Notes under the pieces: generated by a model
Told to the model about the DNA's origin: nothing
Databases searched by the model: none
The model's input: the letters and a program-made list of their open reading frames with translations, nothing else
Translations under genes and position numbers: made by a program
Part shown: positions 53,596-59,767 of the stretch, one piece after another
Layout of the letters: every line of letters starts with the position of its first letter
Position numbering within the stretch: the first letter of the stretch is position 1
NCBI GenBank assembly: GCA_963698225.1
Contig: CAVOPW010000014.1
Span: forward strand, 78,033 to 142,032
Reading direction: 5' to 3'
Length of the DNA: 64,000 nucleotides
DNA from: an uncultured bacterium
GTDB lineage: Bacteria > Zixibacteria > MSB-5A5 > CAIYYT01

Positions 53596-54795
53596 TTATG
53601 GCCCGACCTGCGTGCTGTCGCCAACCCAGCCACACGATAATGTATCGCTGATCCGCGTGATAAATAGCGGCTCCGCAACCGGCAATGGTACGCGAATCGC
53701 TACCGTCGGCTGAAGTGCTGCTCCATTCCCGACTGCCGGGCATTCGTCTCCCGGTATCATTACGGAATATTGGACAATCGTTCCCGCAGAGCCCGGTTCA
53801 AACTTGTCGAGCCAGATTCCGCCTCCCCATGACGTCTGGATGTCGGTCCGTAGTATCAACACCGCATGAGTGGTGAAATCAACCATATTGTCAAGTGGCG
53901 GAACCGGACGGTCTCCAACGACCGTGGAGTCGGTGCCCCAAAGCGTGTCGACCGGCGTACCCCAGCGGCTGACGTCGCACTCCCAGGCGGCCTCAACCCA
54001 GGCAGTAAACTCCTCGGATGTCCGGATCAATTGTCCAGATTCTCCCAGGGCCGGGCAGATGGCGTCGGTATAATACAGTGTCAGCGGCAACGATGGATCG
54101 GGCACCCAGGAACAACTGTAAGTAACATCGCTGCGATTCCAGGCAAATGTCATCACTCCGGGGCGCGGCACAATAAACGCGGCAACGGGGTTGGTGAAGA
54201 TATTCGGATCCACGAGCGGACCGAAACAGTCATCTGCCGGAGAGGATACCTCGTAACTGACTACGGTTTCATTCTCCTTCTCCTCCAGGCTCCTGATCCA
54301 GATATACCGTCCGGCGAGACCCTGTTCGAGTTTAAGGATCAGGATGATGTGTGTTCCAAAATCAACAGGCGGCGCTTCCCCCGGCCAGAGGCTGTCTGGT
54401 CCCACCACGACGGTGTCGGAAACAGTCGAGTCGGAAAGCGGAATGAAATTGCGTTTGAAATTTCCGTTGGCACAGTCAATGGCCCCGTCCCACCACTCCT
54501 CCCAGTTGGCCGAGTCGACTACGGTCTCGAACTGCATCTGCTGTGGACAGCCGTTATCGGTGAAGAACACCGGGAAGTACTGAATGCCGGTATCGAATCC
54601 CGGAAGACCCGGTAGTGTGTCATTGGGTCCGGAGATACCGGGTCCGCCGATAAACGGGTCGCTATCATTTTCGCGGCCGCCGCCCGCAAGACGCTGCGAT
54701 TCCGGTTTGTCCGGTTCCGTCGGTTTGTCGCTCCCGCAGCCTGTGAACAGCCAGAAACCAACCGCCAGCCATAGCAAAGTGACGATTCTCATCAT
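53596..54795 (-). CDS. Hypothetical lipoprotein with an internal tandem duplication of a ~150-aa Cys-containing domain
   Basis: GGAGG RBS and ATG-ATG at 54795/54792. Lipobox 'WLFTGC'. Two collinear repeats each have 'TD..CP...W...W.C....VDF.TH..LIL...G..IW......V.Y.V..P.D.C......P..A..VP.P......SC.W'. The listed ORF start at 54924 would overlap the tRNA. Confidence 0.6.
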   Translation of the reverse strand: MMRIVTLLWLAVGFWLFTGCGSDKPTEPDKPESQRLAGGGRENDSDPFIGGPGISGPNDTLPGLPGFDTGIQYFPVFFTDNGCPQQMQFETVVDSANWEEWWDGAIDCANGNFKRNFIPLSDSTVSDTVVVGPDSLWPGEAPPVDFGTHIILILKLEQGLAGRYIWIRSLEEKENETVVSYEVSSPADDCFGPLVDPNIFTNPVAAFIVPRPGVMTFAWNRSDVTYSCSWVPDPSLPLTLYYTDAICPALGESGQLIRTSEEFTAWVEAAWECDVSRWGTPVDTLWGTDSTVVGDRPVPPLDNMVDFTTHAVLILRTDIQTSWGGGIWLDKFEPGSAGTIVQYSVMIPGDECPAVGNGAALQPTVAIRVPLPVAEPLFITRISDTLSCGWVGDSTQVGP

Positions 54796-54897
54796 ACTAT
54801 TCAACCTCCAAGGATATTCTCCTTCGCTTTGTAGACGACTAATGAACAATGTCTGTGCAGAAATATCGGGGAAGCTGCGCATGCACCCAAGGAAAAA

Positions 54898-54971
<74 letters not shown>

Positions 54972-55780
54972 ATTAGCAGCTTCAAGAAATTCCTCCGGCG
55001 GCTGATTGTCAAGGGATTTCTTGCCGCCATCCCGGCGTTGCCGGACCGATTCAAGTCACCGGCAACAATTCGCCCCGAATAGCCGGGCGTGTTCGATCGC
55101 CGGCAGGAAGAATCTCTTTGGCTACTCCGCCGTTGCCGATAATCAGACCGCAAGGCATTTCAAAATGAGTCATCCGGCGGTTCCCGGCGGACCGCAACGG
55201 CAATCAGCGCCGTACTTTTTTGGCAAATCAAATTGTTGTCAAGTGTTCACATGCAAAAAACATAAAATATTTTTCGTTCGACGAAGATGTGGATGCGCGA
55301 CCAATATTCCGCTTCATGCGACGGCCGCATTTATCGCACTACATATCCACGTTCCGGCGCCATCCGCAAATTTACAGCATAAAATCACTCAAGAGGATCA
55401 AGATGATTTCAAAAATTCCGATTAAGAAATGGAGAGGACGATTCAGGGAATGAACAAGTCGATGTCTGAACAGATGATTTTCGCGGAAGAACAAAAAGTT
55501 TTTGTTGATTTAGTTTGCTCCGACATTCACTCTTACATGCAACTGATTTAAAAACCGGCAGAGATGCTGAAGACACGAGTTCAAGAATGAGCAACAGAGA
55601 AAATTTTCAGGTCAACAGGACAGCAGATGCTCGCACCGAGATCGTCTCTTCGGCATTGGCACGGACCCCCGCGGCTGATGTTGACTCCTTGCAAACAGAA
55701 ATGGGTAGATCATTTGATCGTCCCGGTTTGAAGATAAATTCGAATGATCAACCATTCAATATTTGTGAGAGGAGATCGTA

Positions 55781-56098
55781 GTGGCAGCTAAGAAAGCTAC
55801 AGCGAAGAAGAAAGCAACGAAGAAATCAACTAATAAAAAGTCAACAAAGAAGGGTGCGAACGAGTGGTCGGCTGTCAGTGTCGCTTATCTGAAGGCGAAC
55901 TACAAATCGAAAACCGCACGCGAGATCGCCAAGCGATTGGGCAGATCGATCGACGCCGTTCGTGCTAAAGCCGCAACCTTAAACCTAAAGAAGGGTCCCG
56001 TGAAGAAAAAAGCAGCAGCTAAAAAGAGCACGGCCAAGAAGTCGCCTGCAAAGAAGACGACTGCCAAGAAGGGTACCAAGAAAGCCGGCAAGAAGTAA
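55781..56098 (+). CDS. Histone-H1-like lysine/alanine-rich DNA-binding protein with a central helical (Myb/SANT- or HTH-like) core
   Basis: GAGGAG lies 6 nt upstream of the GTG at 55781. N- and C-terminal tails are KKAT/AKKS repeats ('AAKKATAKKKATKKSTNKKSTKK', 'KKKAAAKKSTAKKSPAKKTTAKKGTKKAGKK'). They flank 'EWSAVSVAYLKANYKSKTAREIAKRLGRSIDAVRAKAATLNL'. A strong terminator follows. Confidence 0.65.
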   Translation: MAAKKATAKKKATKKSTNKKSTKKGANEWSAVSVAYLKANYKSKTAREIAKRLGRSIDAVRAKAATLNLKKGPVKKKAAAKKSTAKKSPAKKTTAKKGTKKAGKK

Positions 56099-56157
56099 TC
56101 TTGCCACCCTTATACTTCGCGCGGGCGAACAGCCTGGTAGCGGGGTAGAATTCTTGC

Positions 56158-56191
56158 AACCCGTGTCTGCAAAGACACGGGTTGATTTTTT
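56158..56191 (+). terminator. Rho-independent terminator
   Basis: Perfect 11-bp stem AACCCGTGTCT / AGACACGGGTT with a GCAA tetraloop, followed by GATTTTTTG. Confidence 0.85.
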
Positions 56192-56214
56192 GTGTTCGAT
56201 TTGCCAAATTGTTC

Positions 56215-57393
56215 ATGCCGGTTCGGCAGTTCGGATATGTGGGCATAAAAATGGGCGTCCTAATCAATCGCGAACAGTTCCAAATGATAGTCTCTGGCGA
56301 TGAGACCTGTCTTGTCCTTAACTCCCGCCAATCCAAACGCCCGTGCCGGGCAGATAAATGGGTGACTGCCACTGAACAGGCGATCCGTCACTACTGCTCC
56401 CGAAACTGCCTCTTTCTCACATCGATTGGGATGAATAGCTGGGAACTGGCCGTTCATCTGGTCAACATCTACGGTGGCCGGCAGATCGTCGTCATCCCTT
56501 CTGATCTGACCGAATACGGCTACGATACGACCGACGATGTGCTGCGAAAGTTCAGACTCGATGACCGACGCACCCGTTTGACCGCCCTCCACGAATCCGA
56601 ATCTTCGGATCAAGAAAGCTGGCCGCAACGTCGCGATGAATTCCTGATCGCCAACGCTCAAATTCTCGTTCCTGTCGCGGTTCGGCCCTCTGGCCGCCTT
56701 CAATCGCTCCTCGATCAGTCGAATGCCATGTTTGACGACTCGTTTCGTATCCCCTATCACAGATCGGTCGACCGGGTGCGCTACGACTGGAACCGGGTAA
56801 AGCTCAATTTGCCGGTCAGCTATGGCTGGAACGGCCTGACCCACTGGACCAGATCCGCCTTCGGACCATTCGATTCGGAAGACCATTGCGATTACTACAG
56901 CGCCATACTGAAATCGAACTCTTACCCCTATTCTGCGATTCATATCCTTGAGCAGATCATGAGAGATCGGCGAATCCGTGCCTCCGGTCGATTTATCCGC
57001 GGCGGATACCGGGTCGTATCGTTGACCGCACTGAAACCTACTGAAGCCATCGAGTTGATGCGCTGGCGGAAACGGTACGCCTATTACAGTTTCGAACCTT
57101 ACGGGATCGCTCTCGACGCCGCGTTCGCCTCCCACCTTGGTTGCCGGCCGGTACAGTATGGGACGCCTTCAGAATTCAACTCGCTCGGCGAACTCGATCG
57201 GCCCTTCTTCCAGAACGCCGGTTCGGAGGTGGCCGAATGGCGGCCGGAGGCCGAATGGCGACATATTGGCGATCTGAACCTGCAGGACGTTCCTGCGGAA
57301 ATGATGCGGATCTATACTTACCGGGAAAGCGAGATGGAGAAATTGCAGCGAATGGCCCCCTGCCAGGTCATCACTCTCACTGTCGGCGATTAA
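56215..57393 (+). CDS. Hypothetical fusion protein: N-terminal DprA/Smf-like (SLOG-superfamily) Rossmann domain + C-terminal AbiGi-like domain
   Basis: Start uncertain: candidate ATGs at 56215, 56251 and 56284, all after the terminator and none with a clear SD. N-domain: 'FLTSIGMNSWELAVHLVNIYGGRQIVVIP' and 'WPQRRDEFLIANAQILVPVAVRPSGRLQSLL' parallel DprA 'SGlA.GID..AH......GG.TIAVLg' and 'FP.RNRII.gLs..vlVvEa...SGsLiTa'. C-domain: 'LTHWTRS', 'RVVSLTAL', 'YSFEPYGIALDAAFASHLGCRPVQYG' and 'PEAEWRHIGDLNL' resemble AbiGi-type signatures as I remember them. Confidence 0.45.
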   Translation: MPVRQFGYVGIKMGVLINREQFQMIVSGDETCLVLNSRQSKRPCRADKWVTATEQAIRHYCSRNCLFLTSIGMNSWELAVHLVNIYGGRQIVVIPSDLTEYGYDTTDDVLRKFRLDDRRTRLTALHESESSDQESWPQRRDEFLIANAQILVPVAVRPSGRLQSLLDQSNAMFDDSFRIPYHRSVDRVRYDWNRVKLNLPVSYGWNGLTHWTRSAFGPFDSEDHCDYYSAILKSNSYPYSAIHILEQIMRDRRIRASGRFIRGGYRVVSLTALKPTEAIELMRWRKRYAYYSFEPYGIALDAAFASHLGCRPVQYGTPSEFNSLGELDRPFFQNAGSEVAEWRPEAEWRHIGDLNLQDVPAEMMRIYTYRESEMEKLQRMAPCQVITLTVGD

Positions 57394-57869
57394 CGCTTGC
57401 CGTGAATGTCCGGCCGCGCGAACTTGTCGCCGTCTTTCGGCATCAAAGGAGAGCTCTGTTGGTAATCTGACTTGCCCACCTGGGAATTGTAAATCCGCAT
57501 ACGAACCGTAAAATCCTGACATGACTGGCAACGGCTGATGTTGCCGGCTTTGTCCTTCGGCACCCGGCGGGTCTTGGTGTGATTGGGAGCGAAAATCTGT
57601 TTGCCGATGACTTCATAACCCTTGGCATGGTCGCGATCGTCATTCCATTTGACGCCCTGGACGACGCGTTGATTGGTCTCGTCGTAAATTGTCACGCCCG
57701 GACAGTCAATGATGACATATTCCTTTTCCTCGTGATAGTCCCGCGAGGCCGAATTGAAAAACCCGTAGAAATCGCCATACCTCTCGTTGCATGGCAAACA
57801 CAGGTAAACCCCTTTGTATTCGCGCATCACCTTGCCGCAGATGTGGCAGCGCTGGGACTTGTCGTCCAT
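57390..57869 (-). CDS. Hypothetical protein with N-terminal zinc ribbon (last gene of a four-gene minus-strand operon)
   Basis: The ATG at 57869 lies 5 nt after the stop of the upstream mini-gene. 'CHICGKVM...YLCLPCNERYG' (CxxC...CxxC) and a second 'CQSCQ' pair near the C-terminus. The listed N-terminal extension to 57971 overlaps the 58-aa gene in another frame. Confidence 0.5.
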   Translation of the reverse strand: MDDKSQRCHICGKVMREYKGVYLCLPCNERYGDFYGFFNSASRDYHEEKEYVIIDCPGVTIYDETNQRVVQGVKWNDDRDHAKGYEVIGKQIFAPNHTKTRRVPKDKAGNISRCQSCQDFTVRMRIYNSQVGKSDYQQSSPLMPKDGDKFARPDIHGKR

Positions 57870-58456: not shown

Positions 58457-58693
58457 CTACTCGTAGTCTGAAGAAATCGTCTCGTCCATCGGTTCGATCG
58501 TCAGTGACGATTCCCCAACGCGCTGCAACCCGATCATGCGCCGGGTAAGAAAGTTCTGTGATGTAATCCACTTCTGCGACAAGTCCAGAACCTCTTGCTG
58601 CTCGACCTCGGTGATCCAGTCAATCACGACGGAATCGTAATGCTGGTCGTCAACCGTCAGGTCATCCATCGTCAGTGTGAACTTCACGCGCAT
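58457..58693 (-). CDS. Hypothetical small acidic protein (first gene of the four-gene operon)
   Basis: AAGGAGGAAG RBS upstream of the ATG at 58693. 78 aa, D/E-rich ('LTMDDLTVDDQHYDSVVIDWITEVEQQEVLD'). No recognised domain. Confidence 0.5.
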   Translation of the reverse strand: MRVKFTLTMDDLTVDDQHYDSVVIDWITEVEQQEVLDLSQKWITSQNFLTRRMIGLQRVGESSLTIEPMDETISSDYE

Positions 58694-58857
58694 CGAGCTT
58701 CCTCCTTGGGCAGTTTGTCTGACATCTCTCTGTGCAGATACATTGCCGAGCTGTTCTGAAGTTTTCGACGGGGGTTATGCTGTTGGCAGATTTGGGTTTG
58801 AGTGCCTGTTCAAAAGGAAACAGCCGTTGCGCGACTATTTTGCATGCGTGTTTTTGT

Positions 58858-58869
58858 GGGGAGCTCCCC
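58858..58869. promoter_or_regulatory. Perfect 12-bp palindrome GGGGAGCTCCCC in the divergent spacer (candidate operator)
   Basis: Located between the minus-strand four-gene operon (start 58693) and the plus-strand Cys/His-rich gene (start 58927). A half-site-like GTGGGGAG recurs 8 nt downstream. Confidence 0.3.
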
Positions 58870-58926
58870 ATATCGTGGGGAGAAAGTCCTTATGTCACTT
58901 CCGGATATCGCGTATATACTCTTGTT

Positions 58927-59767
58927 ATGCAGACCGAATGGCGCAATCTCTACAAGCGGTCCGACATCTTCTTCTGTCCGCATCGACTGCACAAGCACCG
59001 CGAAAGCGGCACTTCCGCATGGCACATCCTCAAGCACAAGGGCTGCTTCCCGCAAGGCTGTATGTCGTTTCGCTGGCGCTGCCAGAAATTCGAAAACGGC
59101 CAGAAATGCCACCGCGACAAGAAGCATGTCGGTAAGGACTGCTTCTCCTGCCCTTTTTTCTTCGACCTCAAGGAAGCGCACCAGCCGGAGTTGCAGATCG
59201 ATCGGACCGAGTATGACACTTTCGTGCGACAATTTGAGGAGTTCGAGGATTGGGTAAACGACATCAGGGGCAAACGAATCGAAGTGCGCGGGGCGGTGAA
59301 GTCAATTAATCCATTGCTGGTGAACCACGGTGAGAATGGCAACCTGCGAATTGCCGGGCGCGGCGTGCTGCTCTATTTCCGCAACGGCATCTTCGGCTAC
59401 GACAAATTCCTCGATCCGTTCTACGCACGGCTGTCGTTTGACGTCTACGAACGTTCCGAGATCGCTGTCGGCGACGAAATCGATATGAAGGGGCAATTGG
59501 AGATCGACCGGGGCAGATTTGTCTTCGAGCGGGTTGGTTCAATCGAAAAATTGCACGACGCCGGCAATGACCCGGTCGCGACCGGCCAATTTTCGTCAGG
59601 CGAAATTCACCGGTACATTAATCGAGGGCCAGCCGGCAAAGTGCCTGCGCTGCCAGCACGGCCTCTTGATTGATTCTGTTAATGGAGATGGTCGTTCCCA
59701 GCCGCGCCGGCTGATGTACTGCACCAAAGGCGTGGCCGACTATCGCTATTGCCCCTACAACGTCTGA
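58927..59767 (+). CDS. Hypothetical Cys/His-rich protein with central OB-fold-like region and C-terminal zinc-ribbon-like motif; +1 frameshift at T4 run 59590-59593
   Basis: N-terminus 'FFCPHRLHKHRESGTSAWHILKHKGCFPQGCMSFRWRCQKFENGQKCHRDKKHVGKDCFSCPFF'. The middle 'GKRIEVRGAVKSI......GNLRIAGRGVLLYF......IAVGDEIDMKGQLEIDRGRFVFERV' fits an OB-fold pattern. Deleting one T joins it to '...QFRQAKFTGTLIEGQPAKCLRCQHGLLIDSVNGDGRSQPRRLMYCTKGVADYRYCPYNV*'. Start is uncertain because no SD is evident. Confidence 0.5.

Follow-up and report, generated by a model that had tools for sequence, protein, structure and literature searches.

A Zixibacteria protein family joining a predicted SLOG/DprA-like domain to a remote AbiGi relative with a predicted DarT-like fold

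AbiGi (PF10899; PDLC02331; NF042957) is the first component of the lactococcal abortive-infection pair AbiG, encoded by abiGi-abiGii. To our knowledge it is among the oldest abortive-infection proteins without a mechanism, and its proposed nature as an ADP-ribosyltransferase (ART) is bioinformatic only. ADP-ribosylation of DNA or RNA is known mainly from toxins (DarT, pierisins and RhsP2) and from Tpt1. AbiGi and DUF2971 have been classed as ART-like, and DUF2971 has been linked to AbiGi and DarT (bioRxiv 10.1101/2024.07.30.605764). DarT, of the DarTG system, is an ADP-ribosyltransferase that modifies thymidine in single-stranded DNA (ssDNA), with catalytic residues R51, Y71, H119 and E160. 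The SLOG-superfamily proteins DprA and ShosA act by binding ssDNA, not by catalysis. Here a gene is described that brings relatives of these modules together in one polypeptide. It lies in a contig from an uncultured bacterium of the Zixibacteria (GenBank assembly GCA_963698225.1, contig CAVOPW010000014.1, positions 78,033 to 142,032); the window is this whole stretch of 64,000 nucleotides, in which the gene ends at position 57393 of the forward strand. Its product has an N-terminal domain with a predicted SLOG/DprA-like fold and a C-terminal domain that is remotely related to AbiGi and, within superfamilies already known, represents a new family with a new domain architecture.

The AlphaFold2 model of the protein, built on a 40-sequence alignment, has two domains separated by a short, poorly conserved linker, with a predicted local distance difference test score (pLDDT) of 91.6 and a predicted template modelling score of 0.89. 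In this model the two domains are tightly packed. When the C-terminal domain is modelled separately the pLDDT is 87.9. The top Foldseek match of this domain in the PDB is Thermus DarT (7omx), with E 0.019 and probability 0.94 over 220 columns. Lower in the list there is an enrichment of KptA/Tpt1, PltA, Arr and pertussis toxin S1, at non-significant E-values above 1. Searching BFVD with Foldseek returned only uncharacterised phage proteins, at E-values of at least 8e-3.

The relationship to AbiGi is seen when diverse members of the family, 127 in number, are each scanned singly against Pfam, PADLOC and NCBIfam, where the AbiGi matches lie below the curated thresholds. In Pfam, AbiGi is matched by 23 members (best E 3.2e-4), DUF2971 by 7, and other families by one or two members each. 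The PADLOC AbiGi model is matched by 26 of the 127 (best 2.6e-5) and the NCBIfam AbiGI model by 2, this being the sole NCBIfam family matched more than once. AbiGi is the only family to recur across these three independent libraries of hidden Markov models. The matches are collinear with the AbiGi profile over the conserved core, window residues 282-311 ('PYGIAI…GIRPVIYG') aligning to positions 50-78 and residues 328-365 ('DW..E.EWR..GD') to positions 128-162. The gathering threshold of PF10899 is 22.4 bits, which none of the sequences inspected reaches; three relatives score 14.5-16.6 bits and the window protein is unmatched. At the level of fold and remote homology, the C-terminal domain is a remote relative of AbiGi with a predicted DarT-like fold. 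A sequence-only reading of this DNA had likened the domain to AbiGi on the basis of a few quoted strings, and it is on these strings that the sub-threshold matches fall.

Three candidate motifs follow the order expected of the ART fold: H197-x-T199, then Y283 or Y302, then E332-x-E334, each invariant or at least 90% conserved (Table 1; residues are counted from the Gly after the start Met). The third of these aligns to AbiGi positions 128-162 and to the C-terminal end of DUF2971. The invariant polar residues would be expected to sit in the NAD+ site of the ART fold. In the 127-member alignment, the members of which share no more than 26-39% identity with the window protein, H197, E281, P282, Y302, E334 and R336 are invariant. 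Invariant or near-invariant columns are S24, R25, Q26, W36, S57, G59, R127, D128, P140 and G147 in the N-terminal half and H197, T199, E281, P282, Y283, G284, Y302, W329, E332, E334 and R336 in the C-terminal half. The strings quoted from the sequence all proved to be present and coincide with such columns: TSIGMNSWE, HWTR and EAEWR at the positions given in Table 1, GRQIVVIP from 56476, RD at 56632-56637, PVAVRPSGR at 56671-56697, VVSLT at 57013-57027 and FEPYG at 57091-57105. Judged by the alignment, these strings are not chance occurrences.

Weak matches are also seen to the PADLOC PDC-S31 models (PDLC04990, PDLC04991 and PDLC04994) in at most nine family members, the best at 2e-4. PDC-S31 is a single-gene "phage defence candidate", on which no publication was found in the literature searched, and may be another AbiGi-like or DUF2971-like family.

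When the whole model is used in a Foldseek search of the PDB, the matches are dominated by the N-terminal domain. The top 14 all belong to the SLOG superfamily, comprising DprA from three species, YpsA, ShosA and a molybdenum-cofactor carrier protein (MCP), with probabilities of 0.99-1.00, E-values of 2e-3 to 1.2e-2 and target-normalised template modelling (TM) scores of 0.29-0.52. LOG and the SLOG domain of ThsA rank after these. Over the SLOG matches overall, probabilities are 0.85-1.0 and E-values 2e-3 to 7e-2, with 140-190 aligned columns. The nearest structures of the domain are thus SLOG proteins, and the predicted fold supports, at fold level, the DprA/SLOG assignment that had been proposed from the sequence.

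Sequence-level echoes of SLOG are very weak, being limited to PsyrA in 2 of the 127 members (E 0.02) and LDcluster4 in one (E 0.19). None of the 127 matches the DprA models DNA_processg_A (PF02481) or TIGRFAM dprA (TIGR00732) at E-values of up to 10, and an hhalign comparison of the N-domain profile with Escherichia coli Smf was negative. The hallmark motifs of the LOG clade are PGGxGTxxE and GGGxxGxMG, neither of which is in the alignment consensus. By eye, and with no statistic attached, the order of the motifs appears to parallel that of DprA, NSR corresponding to GSR, TSxG..WE to SGxAxGID, and RD…PVSxRxxG to RNR…VEA..SGS. The region R127-D128...PV(S/A)xRPxG(N/R) is the one previously likened to RNR…SGS of DprA. 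The NSRQ, TSxG..WE, RD and PVSxRxxG segments form a strongly conserved pocket. The mean frequency of the majority residue is 0.41 in the N-terminal domain and 0.51 in the C-terminal domain, against 0.29 in the linker.

Comparison with the described systems shows likeness to their domains and an absence of their partners. The C-terminal domain shares with AbiGi the pattern H-x-T…(F/Y)G.YGI…PV.Y…E.EWR, whereas the window protein adds an N-terminal SLOG domain of about 160 amino acids (aa). No two-gene arrangement like abiGi-abiGii was found, there being no conserved neighbour across 84 loci, and the gene differs from AbiGi in that it is on the chromosome and not plasmid-borne, is passed on vertically and occurs only in Zixibacteria and relatives. 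DarT leads the structural matches of the C-terminal domain (TM about 0.45), and late in the domain each of the two proteins has an acidic residue of catalytic type; the ssDNA substrate of DarT would also suit a DprA-like partner domain. Sequence identity to DarT is, however, 10%, no mapping of its four catalytic residues onto the window protein was obtained, and six annotated contexts and neighbour clustering revealed neither a DarG macrodomain nor a NADAR antitoxin near the gene.

The best N-domain structures are those of DprA/Smf and ShosA (4ljk, 3uqz, 5mll, 3maj and 8zva, probability about 1.0), and by eye the shared motif order is G/N-S-R, (T/S)SxG, R-(N/D)…S-G. Unlike DprA, the protein has no SAM-like or winged-helix domain and its loci have no competence or RecA context; no dprA gene is among the loci collected. 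ThsA of Thoeris (SIR2-SLOG) and YpsA, both among the N-domain structural matches, offer an analogy in that a SLOG module is joined to, or works with, an NAD+-consuming module. The SLOG domain differs from that of ThsA in being N-terminal and in having a partner with a predicted ART fold, not SIR2, and in contrast to Thoeris a TIR (ThsB) gene is lacking and the surroundings are not a defence island. The defining partners of the AbiG, DarTG, Thoeris and Shosta systems are all lacking. The protein is most like a fusion of DprA/ShosA-type and DarT/AbiGi-type modules. No paper pairing AbiGi with SLOG or DprA was found in the literature searched.

The gene itself is genuine and conserved. The forward-strand open reading frame (ORF) spans 56182-57393, with in-frame starts at TTG 56182, ATG 56215 and ATG 56251. 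ATG 56215, the start used in the sequence-only reading, is that of the NCBI protein P0001 (392 aa, 100% identical). Of the three, ATG 56251 is most likely the conserved start and gives 380 aa, because nearly all of the closest homologs (58-69% identity) have this length and those aligned open with MGV[VL]I. Upstream there is an intrinsic terminator hairpin at 56157-56184, with a 12-bp stem containing 7 G-C pairs, a 4-nt loop and a following T run. A strong terminator had been noted here, as had the likelihood that the gene is its own transcription unit. The terminator is genuine and separates it from the upstream gene for a Lys-rich protein. An operon with that gene is ruled out by the terminator, and the two are neighbours in no more than about 6 loci.

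A word-indexed search yielded 205 full-length homologs, all "hypothetical"; those with a phylum-level name are all from Zixibacteria metagenome-assembled genomes (MAGs), and two are labelled only "bacterium". An exhaustive profile search gave 2059 cluster representatives at 50% identity with E-values of up to 1e-3, 1308 of them at E-values of up to 1e-30. Most of the best 150 from this search are full-length at about 360-400 aa, with some shorter fragments and one of 659 aa. When one genome of each GTDB species was scanned, the gene was found in 153 genomes, a count and not a share of the phylum; these are mostly Zixibacteria by title, with a few labelled Latescibacter, UBP14 or Tariuqbacter, although some of the MAG labels look unreliable. 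The family is without annotation in any source searched. The window protein has no match in Pfam, PADLOC, NCBIfam or PHROGs at E-values of up to 10, and sequence searches of the PDB, whether with the protein alone or with profiles of its full length or of its C-terminal domain, gave noise only. By the curated models it thus falls outside the AbiGi, DprA and DarT families and counts as a distant relative of them.

In the homolog of 659 aa (P0237) the family match is at residues 291-658, after a 290-aa N-terminal extension without a Pfam match. This may be a gene-call fusion or a genuine extra domain.

Genomic context was assessed in the six annotated loci and by clustering the ORFs of the 84 loci into neighbour families. 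The gene order of the window recurs around two relatives, which are 50% and 43% identical: tRNA-Arg, the Lys-rich 105-aa protein, the two-domain protein, the convergent zinc-ribbon gene, and the 107-aa, 78-aa and approximately 280-aa Cys/His-rich proteins. In one of them the block runs on into TsaD, YbbR, FG-GAP and M20 peptidase genes, as in the window; in the other these are on the opposite side of the block. Two long Zixibacteria chromosome records (2.8 and 3.5 Mb) have the gene followed by GT4, OmpA, EndoV, M20 and FG-GAP genes. One relative adjoins a transposase, and one is among glycosyltransferase, LPG-synthase and SNF-transporter genes. The surroundings of the homologs are of housekeeping type (TsaD, YbbR, SpoIID, AnmK, GT4, OmpA, EndoV, M20 peptidase). 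The gene is single-copy at each locus, and its downstream neighbour is mostly convergent. There is no obligate partner, since no neighbour family is present in more than 22 of the 84 loci and the upstream neighbour varies by clade between SpoIID, LPG synthase and the Lys-rich protein.

The pairwise identity of the protein correlates with that of the adjacent TsaD (r 0.89), YbbR (0.92) and FG-GAP protein (0.90), and on average it diverges about as much as YbbR and GT4. Base composition is host-like, with a GC fraction of 0.556 overall and 0.656 at third codon positions, compared with 0.546 and 0.632 for TsaD. Searches of IMG/VR viral contigs, PLSDB plasmids and INPHARED phages turned up no relatives. 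Inheritance of the gene is vertical, and no partner is conserved with it. In light of the host-like composition and the co-divergence with neighbours, recent horizontal transfer is unlikely. The tRNA gene noted beside it from the sequence is indeed present, as tRNA-Arg(ACG) at 54897-54972 on the minus strand. In 7 of 9 related loci it is positioned upstream at a distance of 0.9-1.8 kb, and this conserved synteny rules it out as an island junction.

Taken with moderate confidence, the family is most likely a lineage-specific ART-fold enzyme that uses NAD+, is guided or gated by its DprA-like module and has an endogenous role. In the inferred biochemistry, the C-terminal domain would bind NAD+ and transfer or release ADP-ribose. 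The DprA-like domain would then act in one of two ways. It would hold a single-stranded nucleic-acid substrate for the C-terminal domain, an option suggested by analogy because DprA and ShosA bind ssDNA and DarT modifies it; alternatively, it would bind a nucleotide or ADP-ribose-derived ligand that gates activity, for which SLOG sensor domains give the precedent. The role would be in nucleic-acid metabolism or a stress response. An endogenous enzymatic role is more likely than mobile defence because the gene is single, partnerless, syntenic and absent from mobile elements.

Several observations weigh against such an enzyme. The best structural E-values are modest for both domains, 2e-3 for the N-terminal and 1.9e-2 for the C-terminal, and the assignment of an H-Y-E/ExE site stands on motif order and conservation. 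The window protein passes no curated model threshold and the majority-consensus sequences of each domain found nothing relevant in Pfam. The hhalign comparison of the N-terminal domain with a 16-sequence enterobacterial DprA profile gave a probability below 1%, although this profile is of low diversity (Neff 2.2) and too shallow to be decisive, the Smf-seeded homolog search having returned only close enterobacterial DprA. AbiGi carries the Pfam label of an antitoxin with no enzymatic activity reported, and a 2026 review gives it no structural relatives. The co-divergence test included only loci that still share the neighbour gene, which biases it to vertical descent.

Of the other explanations, the one that survives best is that this is a stand-alone abortive-infection or defence protein, chromosomally fixed, whose SLOG domain would sense a nucleotide or phage ssDNA and trigger an AbiGi-type toxic effector. 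Such a conflict or defence role was the proposal of the sequence-only reading. Both domain superfamilies are common in conflict systems, including the SLOG of ThsA, ShosA, DarT and AbiG, and some family members match the PADLOC AbiGi and PDC-S31 models. The gene is also a self-contained unit, with a convergent gene usually next to it. However, no AbiGii, DarG, macrodomain, NADAR, TIR or PRTase partner, and no nearby defence gene, was found in the six contexts or by neighbour clustering, and ten neighbouring window proteins have no match in PADLOC. Vertical inheritance, kept synteny, host-like composition and absence from the phage, plasmid and viral collections searched likewise speak against it, and a divergence rate like that of YbbR and GT4 shows no arms-race-like acceleration. 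The locus does not resemble a defence island. Homologs uniformly embedded in housekeeping contexts had been named beforehand as a finding that would refute defence, and since they do sit in conserved contexts of this type a defence role is not borne out and is judged to be unlikely.

Similarly unlikely is the proposal that the family is a phylum-wide, antitoxin-free nucleic-acid ADP-ribosyltransferase of DarT/AbiGi type, fixed in the chromosome, that the DprA-like module would recruit to ssDNA or RNA for a housekeeping purpose. If this is true, a vertically inherited, DprA-fused ART would point to an endogenous use of nucleic-acid ADP-ribosylation, and the regulated ADP-ribosylation of a cell's own nucleic acids would be a housekeeping activity, not a toxin or defence activity.

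Less probable again is a KptA/Tpt1-like ART domain acting on phosphorylated RNA or DNA ends, with the SLOG domain processing the ADP-ribose-derived product, in a housekeeping repair or clean-up role. This would fit the housekeeping-type context and vertical inheritance, SLOG domains have been predicted to process ADP-ribose derivatives (PMC9503650), and KptA/Tpt1 structures are among the C-domain matches. These matches are, however, non-significant, with E-values of at least 1.9 and probabilities of at most 0.13, and the Tpt1 catalytic signature R-H-R-R/H-H-h is not evident among the invariant residues. The N-terminal domain has no LOG-type PGGxGTxxE motif and looks nearer to the DprA/YpsA branch, of which the characterised members, DprA and ShosA, bind and do not catalyse. 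A non-catalytic regulator or scaffold that keeps both folds as binding modules, for instance as a nucleotide-responsive regulator, would agree with the antitoxin label of AbiGi and with the binding function of DprA and ShosA, but is judged improbable and is placed last: H197, E281, E332, E334, R336, R127 and D128 are polar residues in positions of catalytic type, and their invariance across divergent members points more to an active site than to a scaffold.

With this family, a SLOG-plus-ART architecture joins the network of NAD+- and nucleotide-centred domains, one that is previously undescribed, conserved across a candidate phylum and testable. The family also provides a conserved, single-polypeptide and apparently non-toxic AbiGi relative with a confident model and candidate catalytic residues. 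This makes it a workable entry for asking whether AbiGi-type domains use NAD+.

Table 1. Positions in the window of the two-domain protein gene, its predicted domains and candidate motifs, and the adjacent features.
Feature	Position	Strand	Basis or remarks
Intrinsic terminator of the upstream Lys-rich protein gene	56157..56192	+	Parts that gene from the two-domain protein gene
Coding sequence of the two-domain protein	56251..57393	+	380 aa plus stop; ORF list, homolog starts, translation
N-terminal Rossmann-like alpha/beta domain, SLOG/DprA-like fold	56302..56727	+	Residues ~17-158; AlphaFold2 and Foldseek
NSRQSK, loop after first strand	56320..56337	+	S24, R25, Q26 invariant or nearly so
TSIGMNSWE, junction of second strand, loop and helix	56419..56445	+	S57, G59 >90%; W63, E64 85% conserved
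R127-D128 then PV(S/A)xRPxG(N/R), helix-strand-loop	56632..56697	+	RD invariant; P140, S142, R144, G147 conserved
Inter-domain linker, least conserved region	56728..56823	+	Alignment; DSSP
C-terminal ART-fold-like domain, distant relative of AbiGi, DUF2971 and DarT	56824..57390	+	AlphaFold2, Foldseek, hidden Markov models
HWTR, candidate ART motif I (H-x-T)	56842..56853	+	H197 invariant, T199 97%; putative motif assignment
FEPYG…PV.Y, candidate ART motif II	57091..57159	+	E281, P282, Y302 invariant; Y283, G284 at least 90%
E-x-E-W-R, candidate catalytic ExE motif III	57247..57261	+	E332 98%; E334, R336 invariant
Zinc-ribbon protein, ~159 aa (CHICGK…CLPC)	57390-57869	-	Sub-threshold Pfam C1_2 match only
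Predicted membrane protein, 107 aa	58121-58444	-	No significant Pfam match
78-aa protein (KVKFTLTMDDLTVDD…SQNFLTRRMIGLQRVGESSLTIEP), very strongly conserved	58457-58693	-	No significant Pfam match
Cys/His-rich protein, ~280 aa	about 58830-59673	+	No significant Pfam match

The neighbouring genes had been taken for orphans from the sequence. They are instead strongly conserved lineage-specific genes that are found in the same order in related genomes, the order of the four downstream (Table 1) being kept in 14-15 related loci. The stop codons of the two-domain protein gene and of the zinc-ribbon gene that converges on it overlap tail to tail (57390-57393), and the two genes are no more than about 30 nt apart in nine related loci, representing seven distinct contigs. 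There is no terminator between them, and convergent transcription could therefore couple their expression.

Upstream, at 55781-56098 on the plus strand, is the gene for the 105-aa protein, which has Lys/Ala-rich, histone-H1-like tails around a short central helix ('EWSAVSVAYLKANYKSKTAREIAKRLGRSIDAVRAKAATLNL'). By eye it differs at few positions in loci where the identity of the two-domain protein falls to about 50%. Pfam and PADLOC give no match to it, and it may be a nucleoid protein. Upstream of this, at 55515-55781 on the same strand, there is an ORF of 84-88 aa ('…AADVDSLQ.EMGRSFD.P…NDQP.N.CER') in a stretch that is conserved in 4 related loci (3 distinct contigs). Rfam has nothing in this stretch, which could encode a small protein or be a conserved leader or regulatory region.

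The Rfam match to 'Plastid-ycf2 5'UTR' at 54897-54971 (+), which scores 32 bits against a gathering threshold of 65.7, is an artefact of the tRNA-Arg antisense strand. A long minus-strand ORF at 53596-54924, without a Pfam or PADLOC match, has a listed TTG start that overlaps the tRNA-Arg gene. From its sequence, the true start is probably the internal 'MMRIVTLLWLAVGFWLFTGC', which has a lipoprotein-type signal with a lipobox.

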